A DNA stretch of 11,380 nucleotides, taken from positions 174,249 through 185,628 of the IMG/VR virus record IMGVR_UViG_3300032163_000001. One strand, given 5' to 3'. The position numbers were made by a program, and so were the translations under genes. Positions 2 through 10,203 of the stretch are shown here, in pieces. The notes beneath the pieces were generated by a model, which saw only the letters and a list, made by a program, of their open reading frames with translations, was not told where the DNA came from and searched no databases. Position 1 is the first letter of the stretch. Every line of letters starts with the position of its first letter. Origin of the DNA: a virus.

Positions 2-409
2 CTATTCACAAATTTTGAATTTGTTCGTTACAAAGTGCTTACCATCAAACTCTTTCAATGTGGTAAAACAAGACTCTATAGAATCAAAGAATCTATGTGT
101 ATGAAATGAAACCCAAATATCTTTTCTTATCTGTTCAGTTGGATCAATAACAAAAACAAGTTTATTGTTATCATATGCAAAACAAATTTCCATTGATGTA
201 CCCCAACTTGGTCTTACAGTATAAGCTACAACAACATCTGATTTCATAATTAAATATTTATCAAGCGAAGGAATTTTTGGAAGGGGTCTACAACCATCTG
301 ACATAGGATCGATTATATCAAAAACTTGTTCATAATCATAGTGTACTGTTTCTCTGTAGTCGGTTTCACCAGTATACCCTGCGAGGTAAATTTTCAGTTT
401 TTCAGTCAT
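2..409 (-). CDS. Nucleoside 2-deoxyribosyltransferase-like / DNPH1 (Rcl)-like protein, 135 aa, complete (ATG 409, TAG at 2-4)
   Basis: N-terminal KIYLAG motif and C-terminal GTSMEICFA...KLVFVI block resemble PF05014 family motifs, including the Glu nucleophile context DxGTxxExGxA. Weak SD (AAGGGA, long spacer). Sits in a minus-strand operon with QueC. Confidence 0.5.
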   Translation of the reverse strand: MTEKLKIYLAGYTGETDYRETVHYDYEQVFDIIDPMSDGCRPLPKIPSLDKYLIMKSDVVVAYTVRPSWGTSMEICFAYDNNKLVFVIDPTEQIRKDIWVSFHTHRFFDSIESCFTTLKEFDGKHFVTNKFKICE

Positions 410-1576: not shown

Positions 1577-2302
1577 TTATTCTACTAATCCTCTTTTAAA
1601 TTCTTCTCTTACTTTTTGCATATACTCAACAGCAATTTTCCATTCTTTTTTGGTAAGCAACGGGTCTTTTATTTTGTTTTCATAAAACGCTTCAGTTCTC
1701 TCAACATCCGTACCACATTTTGAACACGGTCTTGTCTCTCCTCTGTAACATGACCAAGTATTTTTGAATGGAACTTTGTCTACTATTCCTATAGAAACAA
1801 TCTCAGCTTTTGTAAGATTATTAAAAGGACTAATTATTTCTACATGGTTATAAGTTGCCAGTTTTGATGCCTCACTTAGTGCTTGGATAAATTCTATCCT
1901 ACAATCAGGGTATTGGGCTCTATCCCCGGTGTGATTTCCAATAAATACTTTGTTTAGATTAAGTGATTCACTATATCCAATTGCCAAACTCAGCATTATC
2001 ATATTCCTATTTGGAACCACAGTTGCCTTCATACTATCATCTGAAAAATGACCTTCTGGAACTTTTACTTGTTCAGACGTTAAACAACTTCCTTGTAACA
2101 AGGGATTAATATTATGAAGGTTTATAACTTTGTGATTTAATCCTAGAATCTTACAAGTTTTTATTGCGCACTTTATTTCTCGCTTGTGTTTCTGACCATA
2201 ATCAAATGTTAATACTTGAAGATCCCAATCTGGTAACAAGTCATACAGAAGAACAGAACTATCCATCCCACCACTTAGTATTAAAACAGCCTTCTCTTTC
2301 AT
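1577..2302 (-). CDS. queC: 7-cyano-7-deazaguanine (preQ0) synthase QueC, 241 aa
   Basis: PP-loop ATPase motif LSGGMDSS. FDYGQKH matches the QueC FDYGQRH block. VPNRN and YPDC R match VPGRN and YPDCR. C-terminal Zn site CYRGETRPCSKCGTDVER (C..C..C..C). ATG at 2302 with GAGAGGAA upstream. Confidence 0.85.
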   Translation of the reverse strand: MKEKAVLILSGGMDSSVLLYDLLPDWDLQVLTFDYGQKHKREIKCAIKTCKILGLNHKVINLHNINPLLQGSCLTSEQVKVPEGHFSDDSMKATVVPNRNMIMLSLAIGYSESLNLNKVFIGNHTGDRAQYPDCRIEFIQALSEASKLATYNHVEIISPFNNLTKAEIVSIGIVDKVPFKNTWSCYRGETRPCSKCGTDVERTEAFYENKIKDPLLTKKEWKIAVEYMQKVREEFKRGLVE

Positions 2303-3885: not shown

Positions 3886-4026
3886 ATGTCAAAGTTCTTT
3901 ATATTAGTCGCTGGTATTGGGATAGTGTTACAAATTGTATTCGTCAGTTGGACTTTAATTGACATTCGAGACGAACTTCGTATGATTCGAAAACATTTAA
4001 GAGGTGAAAAAATCGAAGAAAATTAA
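3886..4026 (+). CDS. Small membrane peptide, 46 aa (MSKFFILVAGIGIVLQIVFVSWTLIDIRDELRMIRKHLRGEKIEEN)
   Basis: AAAGGAGGAA SD with an 8-nt spacer. N-terminal TM helix. Starts 3 nt after the previous stop. Confidence 0.4.
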   Translation: MSKFFILVAGIGIVLQIVFVSWTLIDIRDELRMIRKHLRGEKIEEN

Positions 4027-4056
4027 CTTACAAAAAGAAAGGAGCAGATAGGAGAA

Positions 4057-4185
4057 ATGGAAGACAGAAAACCAAGTAGATCAAGATTCGTTATCGACTG
4101 GGGCACATTGCAATTCATTGTCCTGAATATATTCGCATTGGGTTTTGCATTGTTGGTAAACGCTTTGTTGAAAAAGTGGGGTTGA
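4057..4185 (+). CDS. Small membrane peptide, 42 aa (MEDRKPSRSRFVIDWGTLQFIVLNIFALGFALLVNALLKKWG)
   Basis: AGGAG-containing leader. Central TM helix. Confidence 0.35.
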   Translation: MEDRKPSRSRFVIDWGTLQFIVLNIFALGFALLVNALLKKWG

Positions 4186-4202
4186 GAGGGGAGGAGATAA
4201 AC

Positions 4203-4457
4203 GTGAAAAACAAAAGTATACCAGGTATTAATCTTTGTGTTGGTTGTGGATACTGTTGTTGGGAATCTACCTGTTCACTCGGTTTCAAACTCTATGGATC
4301 CACTCACCCTTGTTCAGCTTTGTATTGGAATAGACAGCAATATCGTTGTAAATTAGCAGACGATTTCGCAAATCATCTTTACATAGGTACAGGTTGCTGT
4401 TCTCCTTTAAATACATGGAGAAGAAACGTTCAACAAAGAACCGAAATATCACAATAA
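4203..4457 (+). CDS. Cys-rich CxxCxxCC (YkgJ/UPF0153-like) putative metal-binding protein, 84 aa, GTG start
   Basis: GGGGAGGAG SD then GTG at 4203. N-terminal CVGCGYCC fits the CxxCxxCC signature of PF03692. Further cysteines follow (C..C....GCC). Confidence 0.4.
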   Translation: MKNKSIPGINLCVGCGYCCWESTCSLGFKLYGSTHPCSALYWNRQQYRCKLADDFANHLYIGTGCCSPLNTWRRNVQQRTEISQ

Positions 4458-4488
4458 CTAAAAAAAAAGGAGGTGAAACCAAAAAAAT

Positions 4489-4623
4489 ATGAAAGAGGAA
4501 ATCCAAGCGTGGTTTATCAACAAAAACTTAAGTCTATTCTTTAGACTTAAGCACATACTAAACAGAGAAGTAGCTTGTTTGGTATGTTTCAAAATCGACG
4601 CTCTAATCAGAAAAATATTGTAA
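4489..4623 (+). CDS. Hypothetical 44-aa protein (MKEEIQAWFINKNLSLFFRLKHILNREVACLVCFKIDALIRKIL)
   Basis: Perfect extended SD AAAGGAGGTGAAACC before the ATG. Contains a 10-bp perfect inverted repeat (4527-4551). Confidence 0.4.
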   Translation: MKEEIQAWFINKNLSLFFRLKHILNREVACLVCFKIDALIRKIL

Positions 4624-4641
4624 ATAGGAAGGGAAAAAAGA

Positions 4642-4809
4642 ATGTATAAAGTAGCATGTAGAATCCAACAAGCATCAATTAGAAGAGCAGCAGTTTCAGG
4701 TAAAAATCTTAAACAATACATCGCTCCAAGAAAACCAGAACCACTGCCGGAATGGAGTAAGATTCTTAACAAAGTAGTTGTTCTAAAAAGAAACCATTAT
4801 TCTACATAA
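4642..4809 (+). CDS. Hypothetical basic 55-aa protein (MYKVACRIQQASIRRAAVSGKNLKQYIAPRKPEPLPEWSKILNKVVVLKRNHYST)
   Basis: ATG after GGAAGGGA. Lys/Arg-rich. The antisense ORF 4458-4772 in the track is judged spurious. Confidence 0.35.
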   Translation: MYKVACRIQQASIRRAAVSGKNLKQYIAPRKPEPLPEWSKILNKVVVLKRNHYST

Positions 4810-4824
4810 GGAGGTGAACAAGAA

Positions 4825-4971
4825 ATGAGAAAAATAAAAATATGGAGGATTCTAAAAGTATTATTAAGAGTTGAAAAATCGGAAAGACAGATCGTGAGAG
4901 AAAGACTAGCTGATCTGGCTAAGAGGTGGCTAAGAGGTGGTAAAGGAAAAGGAGGTGAAACCAATGGATAA
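4825..4971 (+). CDS. Hypothetical basic 48-aa protein (MRKIKIWRILKVLLRVEKSERQIVRERLADLAKRWLRGGKGKGGETNG)
   Basis: TAAGGAGGTGAACAAGAA then ATG. Its 3' end overlaps the next start at 4964. Contains an 11-nt tandem duplication, gctaagaggtg x2. Confidence 0.35.
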   Translation: MRKIKIWRILKVLLRVEKSERQIVRERLADLAKRWLRGGKGKGGETNG

Positions 4972-5386
4972 AGTTCCAGAGACTCCTATAGAGAAGTGTC
5001 AACACCGTTTATTAAGTCAAGCTTCTTCTATAGCTAATGACTTAAGGTGTCATGTATTTTGCGAAGGCAACAGGTTTATATATGATTTAGAAACTCTTCC
5101 AAATGTCATCAGCAGATGGATTATATATAAACCTGCAAAAGTTCCACGAAATATCCAAGAGATTCTTGAGAATCTTGATGAACTAAGCACTGAAGATGAG
5201 TTTTCTTACATTTCGTCTAGAGAAGAAGCTTTAGACGTGAGTGAAAAAACTCTAGCCTGGTTGCAGAAACTAGATGCTCCAATAATGTATTTCCAACAGA
5301 TTAGGAGCGAGATATCTGAAATTAAATCTCTCTTCAAAGAATGCCTTTTGAATACTCTTGTAGAATGTCTTACAAGAAAGAAATAG
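4964..5386 (+). CDS. Hypothetical protein, 140 aa (true start ATG 4964; the ORF-track GTG at 4937 is rejected)
   Basis: AAAGGAGGTGAAACC then ATG. Long ORF with coding-like composition. No recognisable motif. Confidence 0.55.
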   Translation: MDKVPETPIEKCQHRLLSQASSIANDLRCHVFCEGNRFIYDLETLPNVISRWIIYKPAKVPRNIQEILENLDELSTEDEFSYISSREEALDVSEKTLAWLQKLDAPIMYFQQIRSEISEIKSLFKECLLNTLVECLTRKK

Positions 5387-5425
5387 TCTCCATGGTGAGC
5401 AGTCAAAAAAAGGAGGAGAAATCAA

Positions 5426-5557
5426 ATGGAAGACGAAACAAAACTGCAGTTGAAGCAGGATACTCGAGATGTTGTAAAAGGTGTTGTGATTGAACTCATA
5501 GTCGTAGCTATAGTAGCGGGACTAGGAGTGTTAATTGCAGCTATGTCTAAAAAGTAA
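5426..5557 (+). CDS. Small membrane peptide, 43 aa (MEDETKLQLKQDTRDVVKGVVIELIVVAIVAGLGVLIAAMSKK)
   Basis: AAAAAGGAGGAGAA SD. C-terminal TM helix. Followed by a terminator. Confidence 0.4.
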   Translation: MEDETKLQLKQDTRDVVKGVVIELIVVAIVAGLGVLIAAMSKK

Positions 5558-5590
5558 AACCACATTCAAAATAGTCTCTATACTGAGACA

Positions 5591-5617
5591 AGTGGAAGAA
5601 GTCTTCCACTTTTTTTA
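5591..5617 (+). terminator. Rho-independent terminator ending the plus-strand block
   Basis: Stem AGTGGAAGA / TCTTCCACT (9 bp), 2-nt loop, T7 run. Confidence 0.7.
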
Positions 5618-6643
5618 CTATGACATCCACAACTTAAAGTTTAAGTTACTTATTTGTCCAAGAGAAATATTACTCATATTATTTACTAACTCTTTTCTTA
5701 ACTCTTCATTTCTATTTAGTCCTTCTATTACTTTGCTTTCGACTTCATTGTCGTTAAAATTCACTACACCTTTTTCTTTATAGAAACTCAATAATCTAGT
5801 TTTATTTCTAATCAACAAAGGTGTTCCAGACATTAAAACTTCTGTAACTACTCTTGGAGACCCATCGTATTCATTACTTGTCACAATTGCTAATCTACTC
5901 TTATTTAGAAAAGTATTAATTTCAGGTCTGTTCAAATGTCCTAAAAATTTGATATTAGAAACTCCAAATTTTTTACAAAGATCAATACCTTTTTCTGGTT
6001 CATTTCCCATATGTATGATACTTATTTTTTGTAGTTCTTTGGACTTAGAAACTTCACTTATAAAGTATTCTTGTCCTTTAAAGTTAATTTCACTAAAATT
6101 ACATATCCAACATAAATCATAGTTTTTAACTTGTTTCTTAAATGGATAAAAAATTTTGTCATTCGCTGTCTTAAAGAATGGATATGTTAAAGAATGTTTT
6201 AAATCTTCATCTGACTCAACAAGTATTTTTCTATATCTTCCTCCGTATTGTGGAAATACTCTTCTACCAGCACCTAAGTACAAACTATTACCAAAGAATG
6301 CATGTTGTCGTTTCGTGATCATACAATATTCTTGAAAACCACCTCTAAAGAAAGATATTGTTGGTTTAGGAAACTTATAGATATCATAAAAACTATTAAC
6401 AAACTTTTGAGTAAATGTTTTTCCTCTAATAGTAAAAACAATATCTTTAATATCTACTTTAGGTTTTAGCCTTAAAACAACTACTTCATCTACATAGTTA
6501 TTTTCTAAGTAACACAAACACATCAGAAGATAGAAATCATGACAATTAGTTTTGAATTGTTCTAAGTTTGTAAAACTATGATAGTATTCCAGAATTCTCA
6601 AATTAGTCCTAAATAACCACAGAATCTTTTTTTCCATATTCAA
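5618..6643 (-). CDS. GT-B fold glycosyltransferase (GT4/GT1-like), ~340 aa; start either TTG at 6643 or ATG at 6637
   Basis: C-terminal domain KFLGHLNRPEINTFLNKSRLAIVTSNEYDGSPRVVTEVLMSGTPLLI matches the GT4 nucleotide-sugar binding region (f.G....l..ly..a...v.pS..EgfG...lEAma.G.Pvi). Very AT-rich. Sits on the strand opposite to both flanking blocks. Confidence 0.55.
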   Translation of the reverse strand: MNMEKKILWLFRTNLRILEYYHSFTNLEQFKTNCHDFYLLMCLCYLENNYVDEVVVLRLKPKVDIKDIVFTIRGKTFTQKFVNSFYDIYKFPKPTISFFRGGFQEYCMITKRQHAFFGNSLYLGAGRRVFPQYGGRYRKILVESDEDLKHSLTYPFFKTANDKIFYPFKKQVKNYDLCWICNFSEINFKGQEYFISEVSKSKELQKISIIHMGNEPEKGIDLCKKFGVSNIKFLGHLNRPEINTFLNKSRLAIVTSNEYDGSPRVVTEVLMSGTPLLIRNKTRLLSFYKEKGVVNFNDNEVESKVIEGLNRNEELRKELVNNMSNISLGQISNLNFKLWMS

Positions 6644-6657
6644 TAATACTCCTATTC

Positions 6658-6678
6658 TGTATATATATTAATTCTTAA
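6658..6678 (+). promoter_or_regulatory. Degenerate copy of the promoter-like motif (TGTATATATATTAATTCTTAA)
   Basis: TATATATATTAATT core with a CT insertion. TTCAAT lies 17 nt upstream of the TATATA. Followed by AGAGGAGG and the 6695 ATG. Confidence 0.4.
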
Positions 6679-6694
6679 GAGGAGGTAAAAAATT

Positions 6695-6979
6695 ATGGGA
6701 GATCGATATTTCTTAACAGTTGTTTGTCCTGATTGTGGTGAAGTTGAAGAGGAGGTCTATTACGCTCCAACATGTGGCTTCAAAACACACAAATGTCACG
6801 TATGTCACGAAATAATTGACCTTGAAAAGTATTCTGGAATCTCTGAAGAAGATGCTTCAAATAGAGCTCTATTTGAAGAAGTAGCCAAAAATCCAGACTT
6901 GGCTAAACAGATGGACGAAAGTCCAGAATTGATGATGCAAATGATTGACCAATTCAAAAACAAGGAGGTGAACCAATGA
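6695..6979 (+). CDS. Zinc-ribbon protein, 94 aa (CPDCG ... CGFKTHKCHVCH), acidic C-terminus
   Basis: AAGAGGAGG SD. Two CxxC/CxxC(H) pairs about 20 aa apart. Followed by a terminator. Confidence 0.5.
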   Translation: MGDRYFLTVVCPDCGEVEEEVYYAPTCGFKTHKCHVCHEIIDLEKYSGISEEDASNRALFEEVAKNPDLAKQMDESPELMMQMIDQFKNKEVNQ

Positions 6980-6982
6980 TAT

Positions 6983-7009
6983 ATTCCCTCTTCGGAGGGA
7001 ATTTTTTTG
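6983..7009 (+). terminator. Rho-independent terminator with UUCG tetraloop
   Basis: ATTCCCTC-ttcg-GAGGGAAT, an 8-bp perfect stem, then a T7 run. Confidence 0.75.
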
Positions 7010-7010
7010 C

Positions 7011-7709
7011 CTAAGTAGTTGTTATTATTGCGTCTTCTCTTTGAAAAGAACGAAGTTTATGAGGAGCGATTTTCATACACCGAAGACCAATTGTTGATAG
7101 ACTATGTAGAGCTATATATCCACCCCTCCATTTCATAGGAGATAAATCTAAATTTGGCCTAGTTCTTTCTCCTCTAGTAACAAGATCAATATCATAGTCT
7201 TTTGCTAAAGGACTTTTCTGCAGATAATTTCGTAATAATATTTTGGTCCGATCTATATACATATCATTTTTAAAGTTACACATAATATGAAAAGAACTTT
7301 TTCCTGTAAATTTTATCCAAGCATTATCTATAAAGGGAATTCTAGAGTTTGCAAATTCATATGTATCGATAGCAGCTTGCTTAGCTTCTTTAAAGTTATC
7401 TGTATCAATATCTATAATTCCAAATCTCTCTATACTTTTCATAGTACAATGAATTGAAAGCATACGAGCATGAAAAACATCATCAAAATTTCCACGATTC
7501 AATCTTACAAAATGAGTTGTTTTTCCTCTTCTTAAAACTGTAATTCTATCACCAATAGCTAAAAAGATTATAAGGTCTCTATTAAAAATTTCAAATAGAA
7601 GCTTGTCTTTAACAGACTGATAGTAATCATAATTATTTTTCTCAGTAAGACCTTTTGGATAGAATTCATTGGTTATAAGAATACTATCTGGATGTTTGGG
7701 GTATGGCAT
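7011..7709 (-). CDS. LigD-type primase-polymerase domain protein (PolDom, archaeo-eukaryotic primase superfamily), 232 aa
   Basis: N-terminal [24 protein letters not shown] parallels the LigD Pol N-terminal consensus [35 protein letters not shown] matches motif I (FDLDP). [14 protein letters not shown] matches motif II (TSGSKGLHVY). [25 protein letters not shown] is motif III-like. Confidence 0.65.
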   Translation of the reverse strand: [232 protein letters not shown]

Positions 7710-7718
7710 ATTTTATCC

Positions 7719-8444
7719 TTATATATTTATAACGTCTCCTTCTTTTAGTATGCGTATTTCTTTGAAATGATATTCACTTTCATTTACATGGAATAAGTAA
7801 TCATTTATTTGTTTGTGACTCATGCGAATATGTCCAATGTGTGTAAAATACACACGGTTGACTTTACCTTTAACCCATTCTAGTTGGTGCAACATAGAAG
7901 CGTGTCCAATTCCAACTCTGTAAGAAATATCTTTTTTTAGGGCAGAGCCGTCACCCACATAAACTTCGACTCCTTCAAGAACTTTATTCTTACTTAACAG
8001 TTCTTTTGTATCCGGAGAATATAAAAGTTTTCCGATCCTAATAGCAGATGCAGGTGCAATACTGCTATGAAGAACAGGAAATAAAGTTACAGGGTATCCT
8101 GAAACATCTACGGTGTCTCCATAGTCTAAAACATTAACTTTTTTATCTTCAGGAATTATATGGTGTCTCACTAAAAAGTTATATGTAATATGAGACATAT
8201 AAAGTTCTTTATCAAGATGATATTTTACAGACCATGAGTGGTCAGGGTGAGAATGTGTAATTATAATCTTATTTACTTCACCAGGAATAACTTTAAAATC
8301 CTCTCCACAATCCAACATTATATCTTTTATAAGAAGAGATGCATTTCTTCTCTTTGTAAATATTGGATCTTTACAAGAGGCACAACCACACCCTTCTCTT
8401 GGAAAGTGAATTGAACAGCATGACCCCACTACAATTGCTTTCAT
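7719..8444 (-). CDS. PhnP-like metallo-beta-lactamase fold phosphodiesterase (cyclic phosphodiesterase-like), 241 aa
   Basis: IITHSHPDHSWS is the MBL HxHxDH motif. N-terminal GSCCSIHFPREGCGCASC mirrors the PhnP GTGGAQGVPAWGCECAAC region, including the CxCxxC structural Zn site. C-terminal YFTHIGH matches ILTHISH. Start overlaps the ligase stop (ATGA). Confidence 0.65.
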   Translation of the reverse strand: MKAIVVGSCCSIHFPREGCGCASCKDPIFTKRRNASLLIKDIMLDCGEDFKVIPGEVNKIIITHSHPDHSWSVKYHLDKELYMSHITYNFLVRHHIIPEDKKVNVLDYGDTVDVSGYPVTLFPVLHSSIAPASAIRIGKLLYSPDTKELLSKNKVLEGVEVYVGDGSALKKDISYRVGIGHASMLHQLEWVKGKVNRVYFTHIGHIRMSHKQINDYLFHVNESEYHFKEIRILKEGDVINI

Positions 8445-9481
8445 CTTATCTCCGCTCCCGTACCCAGTTGATCTAATCTTATATCTACGTCATTTACCGA
8501 CTTATCTGGACGTTCTCGAACGAAACTAGGCATGTCCAATGAAATTGTAAGTTTACTTCCCAGTGATACATATTTACTCCTAGTAAATTTATAAGCAGGT
8601 GCTTGTTTTATTCTCCATCTAAATGCTTTGATTTCTACTACCATTTCAGGTTTTACGAAGAACTCTCCATTAATTTCATCACTAATTATTTTTTTTCCTC
8701 CAACAAAATAATCATATAACTCAGACCTTTTAGCATGAGTAAATCCTGTACCGACATCCGAAGAAGATCTAAAAGTTCCATCAGGCCCAATGAAAGCTAG
8801 TTTAAGATAGCTTATTTGTTTTCTTGGCCAACTTTTCATCTTCGTACTTCCAATACCATATACAATCATATCCCAACTGGTGGTAGTTTTAATCTTATAA
8901 TTATCTCTACCATCGTCTAGTCTAGCTACTACTCCTTCAATACCCTTCTTTCTTATAGCTTTAGCATAAAGATCTTTAAAGTCATCAACTCCTCCATACA
9001 CATACTTTGGAATATGAATTCTCTTCGTATTTCTAAAATGACTTGTTATTTCTTCTATAGACTCTTTATAAGAAGTAAATCTTTTTGAATTGATAGAAAA
9101 GATGTCATAAATATAGTGTTGTACTAAAGGTTTATTTTCCACTAAACGAGACATCTTTACAACACTCATTAAATCTGGAAATGGAAGAATCAGGTTATTT
9201 CTAACCGCTACTAATTCTCCTATTAACACTATTTCTTTAATAGTTCTATTTCTACTAAGAATATCAGAGTACTCTTCAAGAACAGGAAGATCAATTATTT
9301 TGATATTATTTATTGTTACAAAGTATGTGTACCCTTTAACAAAAATAAGAGCGCCTAACATACCATCAATTTTTTCAATAAAATAAGAATCAGGAACTTT
9401 CTGAAATTTAGAGATAAATTCATTGTATTCTAGTTGCTTAAAGTTTACGTATTTTTTCCACTCTGCTGCAAAATTCATCAT
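8441..9481 (-). CDS. ATP-dependent DNA ligase (LigD ligase-domain-like), 346 aa
   Basis: Nucleotidyltransferase motifs: I EKIDGM (KxDG), III LIGELV, IIIa YIYDIF, IV EGVVAR, V YKIKTTTSWD, VI FVRERPDK. Confidence 0.7.
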   Translation of the reverse strand: MMNFAAEWKKYVNFKQLEYNEFISKFQKVPDSYFIEKIDGMLGALIFVKGYTYFVTINNIKIIDLPVLEEYSDILSRNRTIKEIVLIGELVAVRNNLILPFPDLMSVVKMSRLVENKPLVQHYIYDIFSINSKRFTSYKESIEEITSHFRNTKRIHIPKYVYGGVDDFKDLYAKAIRKKGIEGVVARLDDGRDNYKIKTTTSWDMIVYGIGSTKMKSWPRKQISYLKLAFIGPDGTFRSSSDVGTGFTHAKRSELYDYFVGGKKIISDEINGEFFVKPEMVVEIKAFRWRIKQAPAYKFTRSKYVSLGSKLTISLDMPSFVRERPDKSVNDVDIRLDQLGTGAEIR

Positions 9482-9499
9482 TAACTGTCTCCAAATAAT

Positions 9500-9817
9500 T
9501 TATTGTACATTATCTTGGAATAAATCTAACGTTCTAGCAGTAATAGCTTTACACCTATCTCCTTCTTTTCCATCCTTGTCTACACTTGAAATAGAATAAG
9601 AATATACAGAACCAGGTTTAACATTAGTATCTGTAGTTATAATATGAGGAGTAGATTGTAAAAACTTACCATCTTTATATATTTTATATTCTTTTGCTCC
9701 ATCTACAAAATCCCACCTAAGGTCAACTTGATTAGGAGTTACTGCAACAACTATTAATCCAGAAGGTGAAAGAATAACGTTTTGTGATCCCTTATCAAAA
9801 TAGTTTTTTGTCTTCAC
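9500..9817 (-). CDS. Fibronectin type III (FN3) domain protein, 105 aa, GTG start
   Basis: PSGLIVVAVTPNQVDLRWDFVDGAKEYKIYKDG...PGSVYSYSISSVD fits the FN3 beta-sandwich pattern (P..L.v...t..sv.L.W......Y.vy.....PGt.Y.y.v.a.d). AAAGGAG 6 nt before the GTG. First gene of the ligase operon. Confidence 0.5.
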   Translation of the reverse strand: MKTKNYFDKGSQNVILSPSGLIVVAVTPNQVDLRWDFVDGAKEYKIYKDGKFLQSTPHIITTDTNVKPGSVYSYSISSVDKDGKEGDRCKAITARTLDLFQDNVQ

Positions 9818-9881
9818 TATTTGCTCCTTTTTAACTGTATAAGTTACTTTATATTTTGTTCTAACTAAACCAAGTAAACTA

Positions 9882-9896
9882 CATATATTAATACAT
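9882..9896 (+). promoter_or_regulatory. Degenerate promoter-like motif (CATATATTAATACAT) upstream of the 9916 gene
   Basis: TATATTAAT core shared with the 17-mer family. Followed directly by GAGGAGGAGGTGA and an ATG. Sits in the region divergent from the ligase operon. Confidence 0.35.
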
Positions 9897-9915
9897 GAGG
9901 AGGAGGTGAATTCAA

Positions 9916-10203
9916 ATGATACTTTTAAAAGTGTTACTAGGAATATTGTTAGGAATATGTGGCCTTATATGCTTAGCTATATTTTTCGTATTCACATTCG
10001 CAACTCTACCATCACTTTGGGTGAATACAATCATATATGGGGCACTTACTCTCTGTGGCATGCTCATCTATTTCCTACCATCAGTAGTAGCTATCGCTAG
10101 ATACAAAAAGAACACTCTAGCTATTTTCGCAGCGAACCTTTTAGTCGGATGGACATTCATAGGTTGGGTCATTTGCTTCATATGGGCACTTACAAAGGAC
10201 TGA
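9916..10203 (+). CDS. Superinfection immunity (Imm, PF14373-like) membrane protein, 95 aa
   Basis: YFLPSVVAIARYKKNTLAIFAANLLVGWTFIGWVICFIWAL matches the Imm-family signature YFLPsiiA.(R).(H/K)(K)N...IF.lNLLlGWT.IGW..AliWA. Two or three TM helices. Strong SD. Confidence 0.6.
   Translation: MILLKVLLGILLGICGLICLAIFFVFTFATLPSLWVNTIIYGALTLCGMLIYFLPSVVAIARYKKNTLAIFAANLLVGWTFIGWVICFIWALTKD

Follow-up and report, generated by a model that had tools for sequence, protein, structure and literature searches.

A putative phage DNA repair cassette of an ATP-dependent ligase, a PhnP-like hydrolase and a LigD-type primase-polymerase

A stretch of viral DNA of 11,380 nucleotides (IMG/VR record IMGVR_UViG_3300032163_000001, positions 174,249 to 185,628; hereafter the window) carries a block of four consecutive minus-strand open reading frames (ORFs) encoding, in this order, a small FN3-like protein, an ATP-dependent DNA ligase, a PhnP-like metallo-beta-lactamase (MBL) hydrolase and an archaeo-eukaryotic primase-polymerase (AEP), here called Pol. 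We give about even credence to the reading that the ligase, MBL and Pol form a Ku-independent phage cassette for the repair of DNA strand breaks (nicks, gaps and ends), which would clean, fill and seal them. The data strongly back one element of this reading, as three independent routes tie the MBL family to the sealing and repair of DNA: a probable translational coupling in the window, fusion to ligases, and operons with LigD or base-excision-repair (BER) genes.

The core unit of the proposed cassette would be the ligase, MBL and Pol, co-transcribed and probably translationally coupled. The MBL phosphodiesterase would clean blocked or damaged termini (3'-phosphate or other 3'-blocking groups) or trim a few nucleotides, the LigD/Prim-PolC-type Pol would fill the short gap or extend the 3' end, and the minimal ATP-dependent ligase would seal the nick, the steps presumably following one another in this order. 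Candidate chemistries that we would propose for the MBL are those of a 3'-phosphatase or 3'-phosphodiesterase, a cyclic phosphodiesterase, and short exonucleolytic trimming. The substrate would presumably be phage DNA damaged by host nucleases or glycosylases, and not replication intermediates. The genes of the block, with their predicted products, are as follows:

9500-9817, minus strand: small FN3/Ig-like protein, first in the block (105 aa, GTG start)
8441-9481, minus strand: minimal ATP-dependent DNA ligase with nucleotidyltransferase and OB domains (346 aa)
7719-8444, minus strand: binuclear MBL hydrolase resembling the PhnP family, with an N-terminal CxCxxC (241 aa)
7011-7709, minus strand: short AEP of the LigD PolDom/Prim-PolC type, Pol (232 aa)

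The ORF list and the sequence bear out what an initial annotation of the window had described: four tightly packed minus-strand genes with an ATGA overlap and a 9-nucleotide gap between MBL and Pol. The spacings within the block are 18, -4 and 9 nucleotides. The ATGA at 8441-8444 overlaps the ligase stop with the MBL start, the 9 nucleotides from the MBL stop to the Pol ATG (7710-7718) hold an AAGGA ribosome-binding site, and the 18 nucleotides between the FN3-like stop and the ligase ATG contain GGAGA. An AAGGAG ribosome-binding site lies ahead of the GTG start of the FN3-like gene, and a terminator scan found no terminator-like sites on the minus strand within the block. Two elements flank it:

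6983-7002, no strand: GC-rich hairpin between Pol and the convergent ORF 6695-6979 (plus strand), from the terminator scan and RNA folding
9818-9915, no strand: intergenic region between the block and a divergent Imm_superinfect-like gene, presumed promoter region

The hairpin, which folds at -11.4 kcal/mol (z -3.17) in the minus-strand transcript, is the likely end of the transcription unit; the T-run seen by the terminator scan is on the plus strand, and the downstream U-run of the minus strand is poor. A sigma-70 promoter scan of 9818-9915 gave nothing convincing and the relatives of the phage encode their own multisubunit RNA polymerase (RNAP), so a promoter there can only be presumed. The initial annotation had listed the FN3-like gene in the run of four. 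We reject it as a cassette member, because its match to Pfam fn3 is below threshold (E 0.004, 17.6 bits against a cut-off of 25) and it is not conserved alongside the cassette: among 45 loci, it stands beside it in the window's own contig only. Its PHROG matches are the FN3-like parts of tail proteins.

The MBL is PhnP-like, with the PhnP family its nearest known family in fold, yet it is not PhnP. It matches Pfam Lactamase_B_2 (PF12706) at 1.2e-9 and has the HxHxDH motif at residues 64-69; across 49 sequences there is no variation at H64, H66, D68, H69 and H202 and next to none at H126 and D165. Three cysteines (C19, C21 and C24), invariant in the phage clade and aligned with GCDCAVC of 6b9v, make up the CxCxxC motif, a putative structural Zn site. 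An AlphaFold (AF2) model of the protein (pLDDT 95.6) was closest by Foldseek to the PhnP-family diphosphatase 6b9v (E 1.4e-14, TM 0.75), followed by 3md7 and PhnP 3g1p (TM 0.73), the family as a whole spanning TM 0.70-0.75. YhfI/ElaC-like proteins come after the PhnP family and ahead of the Apyc1 structures, which rank 16th and lower (TM 0.59-0.67; 7u2r at E 3e-11, TM 0.63). The fold ranking and the cysteine trio thus sustain the earlier call of a PhnP-like MBL with CxCxxC. Among specific models, the PhnP equivalog TIGR03307 scored 18.5 bits against a cut-off of 272 and TIGR04122, the model of the ligase-associated beta-CASP exonuclease, 15 bits against 325, over residues 56-126 only, and PF23023 (Anti-Pycsar_Apyc1) gave nothing for the window MBL at E<=0.1. 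Most of the distant MBL relatives have overlapping precomputed matches to PF23023, and those checked singly were faint or weak.

An exhaustive HMMER search with the MBL against 1.84 billion representatives returned 1,045 hits. Behind the ortholog, the highest-ranking hits (E 1e-51 to 1e-32) were MBL domains within proteins of 500-2000 aa, and six of the eight top long relatives carried Pfam DNA_ligase_A_M above its cut-off, in both MBL-Lig and Lig-MBL orders. With a hidden Markov model (HMM) built from nine Pfam-verified fused ligase domains, we found a ligase domain in 39 of the 61 MBL hits of at least 450 aa, a number that includes six of the nine training sequences. The closest fusions have the FPREGCxCxxCxDP motif of the window MBL. 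We found no Pol-family or LigD-Pol domain inside the MBL-ligase fusions, which therefore tie the MBL to the ligase only. Three of the fusions are in IMG/VR loci:

L066, 5092-8499: MBL-ligase fusion
L071, 5932-9699: MBL-ligase fusion
L078, 4231-10263: MBL-ligase fusion

Together with proteins P0191, P0194, P0195 and P0197-P0199, these are giant phage ORFs (840-2000 aa) with a PhnP-like MBL and an ATP-dependent ligase. The fusions of L078 and P0199 add a D12 N6-adenine DNA methyltransferase domain, and the L078 fusion ORF is directly upstream of a capsid-domain ORF. The giant MBL-ligase ORFs have the look of polyvalent proteins associated with the virion, a type so far undescribed. LigD_N in the ORFs after the L066 and L071 fusions, considered as a LigD 3'-phosphoesterase (PE) domain, was under the Pfam cut-off and was not counted.

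The nearest cellular relatives of the MBL score 1e-31 to 1e-34 against a phage-only MBL profile and belong to a bacterial sister family without the Cys motif. We surveyed 52 bacterial loci from diverse phyla, taking neighbours from all ORFs. Pfam confirmed MBL-PE-Pol operons in five loci, with overlapping genes in L101 and L122:

L101, 3318-5631: MBL-PE-Pol operon
L122, 2206-4594: MBL-PE-Pol operon
L129, 5956-8308: MBL-PE-Pol operon
L104, 2682-5014: MBL-PE-Pol operon
L109, 5908-8249: MBL-PE-Pol operon

The bacteria concerned are Dependentiae, Anaerolineae, Gaiellaceae, a Pseudomonadota metagenome-assembled genome (MAG) and an unclassified MAG. A PE-Lig-Pol-MBL operon was confirmed by Pfam in a Bacteroidetes MAG (L091, 3235-6621), and L090 has a Pol near the MBL (Pfam). 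PolX, Fpg and MBL stand together in Ferruginivarius sediminum (L055, 2296-5723; Pfam), and profile searches placed Fpg/Nei or PolX next to the MBL in L099 (5944-7484), L106 (5081-6663) and L110 (3-1926); an MBL beside Fpg/Nei and/or PolX suggests a base-excision-repair set. Altogether, LigD PE/Pol/ligase, Fpg or PolX lie within 6 kb of the MBL in 17-20 of the 52 loci, and we would put the chance of any one such repair gene being that near a random gene below 1%, which is a rough prior and not a measured rate. No Ku was adjacent among the genes scanned beside the bacterial MBL operons. In the Anaerolineae MAG, a gene for a bacterial archaeo-eukaryotic release factor-like protein (baeRF) directly follows MBL-PE-Pol (L104, 4767-6179).

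The initial annotation had placed the MBL in the slot of the PE domain. This is not supported, as the bacterial relatives share operons with PE and a related phage ortholog lies two genes from a stand-alone PE; with the two co-occurring, the MBL is an extra partner and not a demonstrated PE substitute. The phage case is a 95-kb contig (L051, 6001-7932), where an MBL ortholog with 55% identity precedes a 76-aa ORF, a PDDEXK nuclease and then a stand-alone LigD PE of 127 aa. Downstream of the PE are NrdG/NrdD and a RecA/UvsX-like gene; neither Pol nor ligase belongs to this neighbourhood of replication and repair.

The suggestion that the MBL is an end-healing partner of the ligase gains support from the MBL-ligase fusions and from the bacterial operons with LigD PE and Pol. 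As an undescribed MBL family is fused to phage ligases and stands beside bacterial LigD genes, it is probably a new DNA-end-cleaning ligase partner. More tentatively, and with somewhat less than even confidence, we propose that an unrecognised family of PhnP-like MBLs comprises dedicated DNA-end processors for ATP-dependent ligases and LigD-type modules across bacteria and phages. The bacterial MBL would then act as the fourth component in split LigD sets and in the Fpg/PolX sets for base excision, and the phage MBL would be part of a counter-defence toolkit, in the form of an operon or of giant MBL-ligase(-methyltransferase) proteins encoded beside capsid genes, that would re-seal phage DNA after cuts or nicks by nucleases or glycosylases of the host. 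A role in counter-defence is plausible because of the virion-proximal MBL-ligase-methyltransferase proteins and the probable DNA modification (QueC and a glycosyltransferase in the window).

The Pol of the window has no matches in Pfam, PF21686 included, PHROG or NCBIfam. A phmmer search against PDB sequences gave noise only and the Pol profile gave weak AEP matches in the PDB (CAPP 7nqd, E 0.018; 5dmu, E 0.75), and the fold therefore had to be sought by structure prediction. Foldseek aligned the AF2 model (pLDDT 91.9) to LigD PolDom/Prim-PolC-type structures of the PDB at E about 1e-9 and TMq 0.78-0.81: Prim-PolC 6sa0 and 5op0 (top), the Mycobacterium tuberculosis (Mtb) LigD PolDom 3pky, a Pseudomonas LigD PolDom and the Methanocella Pol 5dmu of nonhomologous end joining (NHEJ). 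Replicative AEPs reached TM of only about 0.45 and no more than 0.5, and viral proteins of BFVD 0.45-0.52 at most. The family consists of proteins of about 230 aa in 170 clusters, with D100, D102 (DxD), H141 and D188 invariant, and its distant members L032 and L034, in which the Pol domains are embedded in larger proteins, match Pfam LigD_Prim-Pol (PF21686) at 56 and 38 bits, above the cut-off. By its predicted fold and these sequence bridges, the 232-aa protein is an AEP of the LigD/Prim-PolC type; the motif-based call of a LigD-type primase-polymerase was right, the fold (TM about 0.8), the bridges and the invariant residues all agreeing with it. The L032 protein (4014-9242) has 1743 aa and combines the LigD_Prim-Pol domain with a C-terminal rubrerythrin domain; a LigD PE domain follows in the ORF after next (11215-13560).

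The ligase matches Pfam DNA_ligase_A_C at 29.4 bits (cut-off 27.5) and PHROG 114, 'ATP-dependent DNA ligase', at 1.7e-15, and its family profile finds the archaeal Lig1-type DNA ligases 3gde and 2cfm in the PDB at 2e-13. The KxDG motif spans residues K37-G40, and motif VI (RxRxDK) does not vary within the family; K37, D39, E89, K196, K198, R322, R324, D326 and K327 are invariant across 7 phage homologs. Its identity as an ATP-dependent DNA ligase is thereby confirmed. The narrower claim that it is LigD-like is not supported, as the best solved relatives are archaeal Lig1-type and the family profile gave no LigD match in the PDB at E<=0.01. The NCBIfam models NHEJ_ligase_lig (5.9e-11) and dnl1 (5.3e-10) both score far under their cut-offs, and Pfam RNA_ligase is borderline at 26.9 bits against a cut-off of 27. 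Judged by its motifs and profile matches, the protein is a minimal DNA ligase with an OB domain, not demonstrably LigD-type.

Homologs of Pol are found in about 38 distinct phage loci, and in nine of these a ligase adjoins Pol or is one gene off, in both Lig-Pol and Pol-Lig orders and in one relative only 30% identical. The ligase is the sole recurrent DNA-metabolism neighbour of Pol, and neither a helicase nor Ku is among the 25 most frequent neighbour Pfam families (36 phage loci). A stand-alone LigD PE lies near Pol in phages L023 and L032. In L050, both Lig/MBL and MBL/Pol overlap by 4 nucleotides; this locus has no small convergent ORF, and a glycosyltransferase comes directly after Pol. 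The Pfam table of the 20.6-kb locus around the window (L001) contains no Ku family, and the PE HMM (PF13298) has no match in the window or L001 at E<=0.01, in agreement with the Pfam table of L001. The lack of Ku reported for the window thus extends to 20.6 kb of its own contig, where PE was likewise not found. As for the question, raised earlier, of whether the gene order recurs in related phages, the ligase-Pol pair does so in nine loci and the trio only in the close relatives of the window.

Several observations weigh against a repair cassette. The ligase-MBL-Pol trio is confined to the lineage of the window (three contigs, whose MBLs have 77% identity or more), MBL orthologs with 55-60% identity stand apart from Pol and ligase, some of them among unrelated genes, and on the 119-kb contig of L010/L056 the MBL is about 67 kb from Pol-Lig; with the trio lineage-specific, synteny alone is weak evidence for the MBL. 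The fused-ligase HMM does not match the window ligase, which is thus of another ligase subfamily, and for this reason we rejected the idea that the window pair is a split form of the fusions. A glycosyltransferase follows Pol in about 19 of the about 38 phage loci, more often than does the ligase. PhnP-family enzymes act on small-molecule phosphodiesters, and a DNA-end substrate is something that we infer for the MBL. The 5'-phosphate pocket of the Mtb LigD PolDom consists of Asn13, Lys16 and Lys26 (PMC8656161). In our alignment with LigD-type Pols, where identity is 15-19% and register errors are possible, the phage Pols have S/T at Lys16 and an invariant Glu23 at the position of Lys26, and the Pols of the bacterial operons retain the N..K and TK lysines. 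In this alignment the phage Pol is also missing a stretch of ~22 aa and stops about 50 aa short of the C-terminus of the bacterial Pols. With the pocket lysines missing and the chain shorter, the phage Pol may not recognise gaps in the manner of LigD or Prim-PolC.

The missing lysines would suit a replication module, in which the AEP is a primase or a translesion/restart prim-pol, the ligase seals Okazaki fragments and the MBL is unrelated or removes primers or flaps. Pol is widespread as a single-copy gene in the large-phage clade (170 clusters, 37 IMG/VR loci), with the ligase adjacent in only about a quarter, and one family member was named 'DNA primase' by JGI. A survey of jumbo phages found group 1, the phages with multisubunit RNAP, to be without a recognisable primase (PMC7824862), and the relatives studied here encode an Rpb1-like RNAP next to Pol. 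We nevertheless consider a replication module unlikely, as the fold of Pol resembles the repair Prim-Pols of NHEJ and BER (TM 0.8) far more than any replicative AEP, for which TM stays at or below 0.5, helicases are missing from the 25 most frequent neighbour families and a DNA polymerase is present in one locus only. Furthermore, LigD PE, a repair-only domain, stands beside Pol in L023 and L032, and the bacterial partners of the MBL family are repair genes. These partners bear also on whether the MBL is a passenger with a function of its own away from DNA ends, which would leave only ligase and Pol as a functional pair. The unlinked MBL orthologs in related phages and the restriction of the trio to 3 closely related contigs speak for a passenger; the ATGA overlap with the ligase, the 4-nucleotide overlaps on both sides in L050, the independent MBL-ligase fusions in dozens of proteins and the independent bacterial operons uniting the MBL family with LigD Pol, PE and ligase speak against it. 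Separate clustering in phages and in bacteria is hard to put down to chance, and we regard a passenger as rather improbable.

Two further explanations would turn the MBL to nucleotides or RNA. An Apyc1-like anti-defence phosphodiesterase, degrading the immune signalling nucleotides of the host, would also be a small phage-encoded MBL, and both the fold match to 7u2r, which is significant, and the precomputed PF23023 matches of most of the distant relatives point that way. Still, PhnP-family structures fit better, PF23023 does not match the window MBL itself, and fusions to DNA ligase and methyltransferase, together with operons containing LigD PE/Pol, Fpg and PolX, point to DNA, making such an enzyme very improbable. 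Scarcely probable, too, is RNA healing and sealing in the manner of T4 Pnkp/Rnl, with the MBL opening the 2',3'-cyclic phosphate of cleaved tRNA or mRNA and the ligase resealing it. PhnP-family enzymes do hydrolyse cyclic phosphodiesters, the Pfam RNA_ligase score is borderline, and LigD-type Pols prefer rNTPs (PMC5663958). Against this, the ligase, with its OB domain and motif VI, best matches DNA ligases, the MBL family is partnered by enzymes of DNA repair and by a D12 DNA methyltransferase, and the block is without the kinase or 3'-phosphatase required for RNA healing.

Among known systems, the proposed clean-fill-seal cassette best fits, by analogy, the logic of LigC/Prim-PolC excision repair. 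LigC and Prim-PolC of mycobacteria work as a pair in excision repair, independently of Ku, and rely on another enzyme to remove the 3'-phosphate after Fpg (PMC5663958); like the phage proteins, they are a stand-alone ligase and a stand-alone Prim-Pol, and Prim-PolC structures are the top fold matches of Pol. The Fpg/PolX neighbours of the bacterial MBL relatives fit this need for a separate 3'-end cleaner. The C-terminal region with Loop 3 of Prim-PolC (PMC5663958) is absent from the phage Pol (330 aa versus 232 aa), the mycobacterial end cleaners are EndoIV and ExoIII instead of an MBL, and the setting is cellular and not that of a phage. LigD NHEJ, whether as a fused Lig-Pol-PE or split as in Methanocella paludicola, likewise combines an ATP-dependent ligase with a Prim-Pol of the same fold (TM about 0.8), whose catalytic DxD, H and D are also kept in the phage Pol; the split archaeal version, moreover, has separate polypeptides encoded in one operon, as in the phage block. 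The phage differs in that PE and Ku were not found in the window or the 20.6 kb, the ligase is not of a specifically LigD kind, Pol has about 60 aa fewer and in the alignment is without Lys16/Lys26, and an MBL hydrolase, not a described component of LigD, is added.

An operon of Lhr, LigB, a phosphoesterase and a beta-CASP MBL exonuclease, termed 'ligase-associated DNA damage response' (Ejaz and Shuman 2018, as cited in PMC10140301), also couples, and sometimes fuses, an ATP-dependent ligase to an MBL-fold enzyme. As presented there, its MBL, an exonuclease of the beta-CASP/RMMBL kind, has about 330 aa, whereas the 241-aa phage MBL is without beta-CASP and too short for it; LigB has a DNA-binding domain, and the operon includes the helicase Lhr, which the phage block lacks. 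The PhnP family (3g1p of E. coli, the Koribacter diphosphatase 6b9v and 3md7 of Brucella) provides the best fold and sequence matches of the MBL and shares with it HxHxDH and CxCxxC. The phn operon is absent here, the neighbours being ligase and Pol. Apyc1 enzymes are also small phage MBL phosphodiesterases with a significant likeness in fold; the phage MBL is less similar to them than to PhnP, and the partners differ.

The window lies within a metagenomic contig of 111.5 kb, and a contig of 185.6 kb is on record with an MBL identical to that of the window. Its surroundings are viral (QueC, an SLT lysin, an Imm_superinfect protein and many small ORFs), and its relatives are IMG/VR contigs of 57-312 kb encoding an Rpb1-like RNAP. 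Neither the whole window (megablast) nor Pol, MBL and ligase (tblastn) matched any of 50,697 GenBank phage records, which left no cultured relative to annotate from, and members of the clade likewise have no matches to GenBank phage records. Proteins of ~1000 aa are encoded one or two genes after Pol in L009 (9746-12745), L017, L020 and L026; the one scanned individually, that of L009, contains domains 2 and 5 of RNA polymerase Rpb1, which a pooled scan finds in three such neighbours. With Rpb1 domains near Pol, we conclude that the phage clade encodes a multisubunit RNAP. Within the window, QueC is at 1577-2302 (minus strand; Pfam 1.8e-58), and the phage probably makes 7-deazaguanine-modified DNA. 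An ORF at 2-409 (minus strand) is weakly similar to nucleoside 2-deoxyribosyltransferase/SLOG proteins. Divergent from the operon is the gene for the Imm_superinfect-family membrane protein (9916-10203, plus strand), and the ORF convergent to Pol (6695-6979, plus strand) encodes a 94-aa protein, zinc-ribbon-like with CxxC...CxxC, that is found in the window's own contigs only.

The glycosyltransferase of the window is of the GT1 family (5618-6643, minus strand; 341 aa; E about 1e-100 between phages), and the loci with such a gene include L003, L006, L010, L012, L018, L019 and L028. Frequent companions are sugar-nucleotide enzymes (UDP-GlcNAc 2-epimerase, GFO_IDH_MocA oxidoreductases, methyltransferases). 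We set the glycosyltransferase aside as a functional partner, as the convergent gene and the hairpin intervene in the window, and record only the synteny of a LigD-type Pol with glycosylation genes.

LigD, the split archaeal NHEJ, LigC/Prim-PolC and the LigB-Lhr-beta-CASP MBL operon with its fusions are already known. In the open-access literature, we found no description of a PhnP-like MBL paired with a ligase or LigD modules, nor of MBL-ligase phage polyvalent proteins; searches on LigD with MBL, and on polyvalent proteins with ligase or MBL, turned up only the LigB/Lhr/beta-CASP precedent. The cassette provides a directly testable biochemical hypothesis, with three small and probably soluble proteins. 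If the reading is true, LigD/LigC-type repair of prokaryotes extends to large uncultured phages. The MBL, with its three independent linkages to DNA sealing and repair, is the more important point: if it cleans ends, it would supply a missing step by which Ku-independent ligase/Prim-Pol pathways come by ligatable ends, and it would point to a counter-defence analogous, at the level of DNA, to healing and sealing by T4 Pnkp/Rnl.

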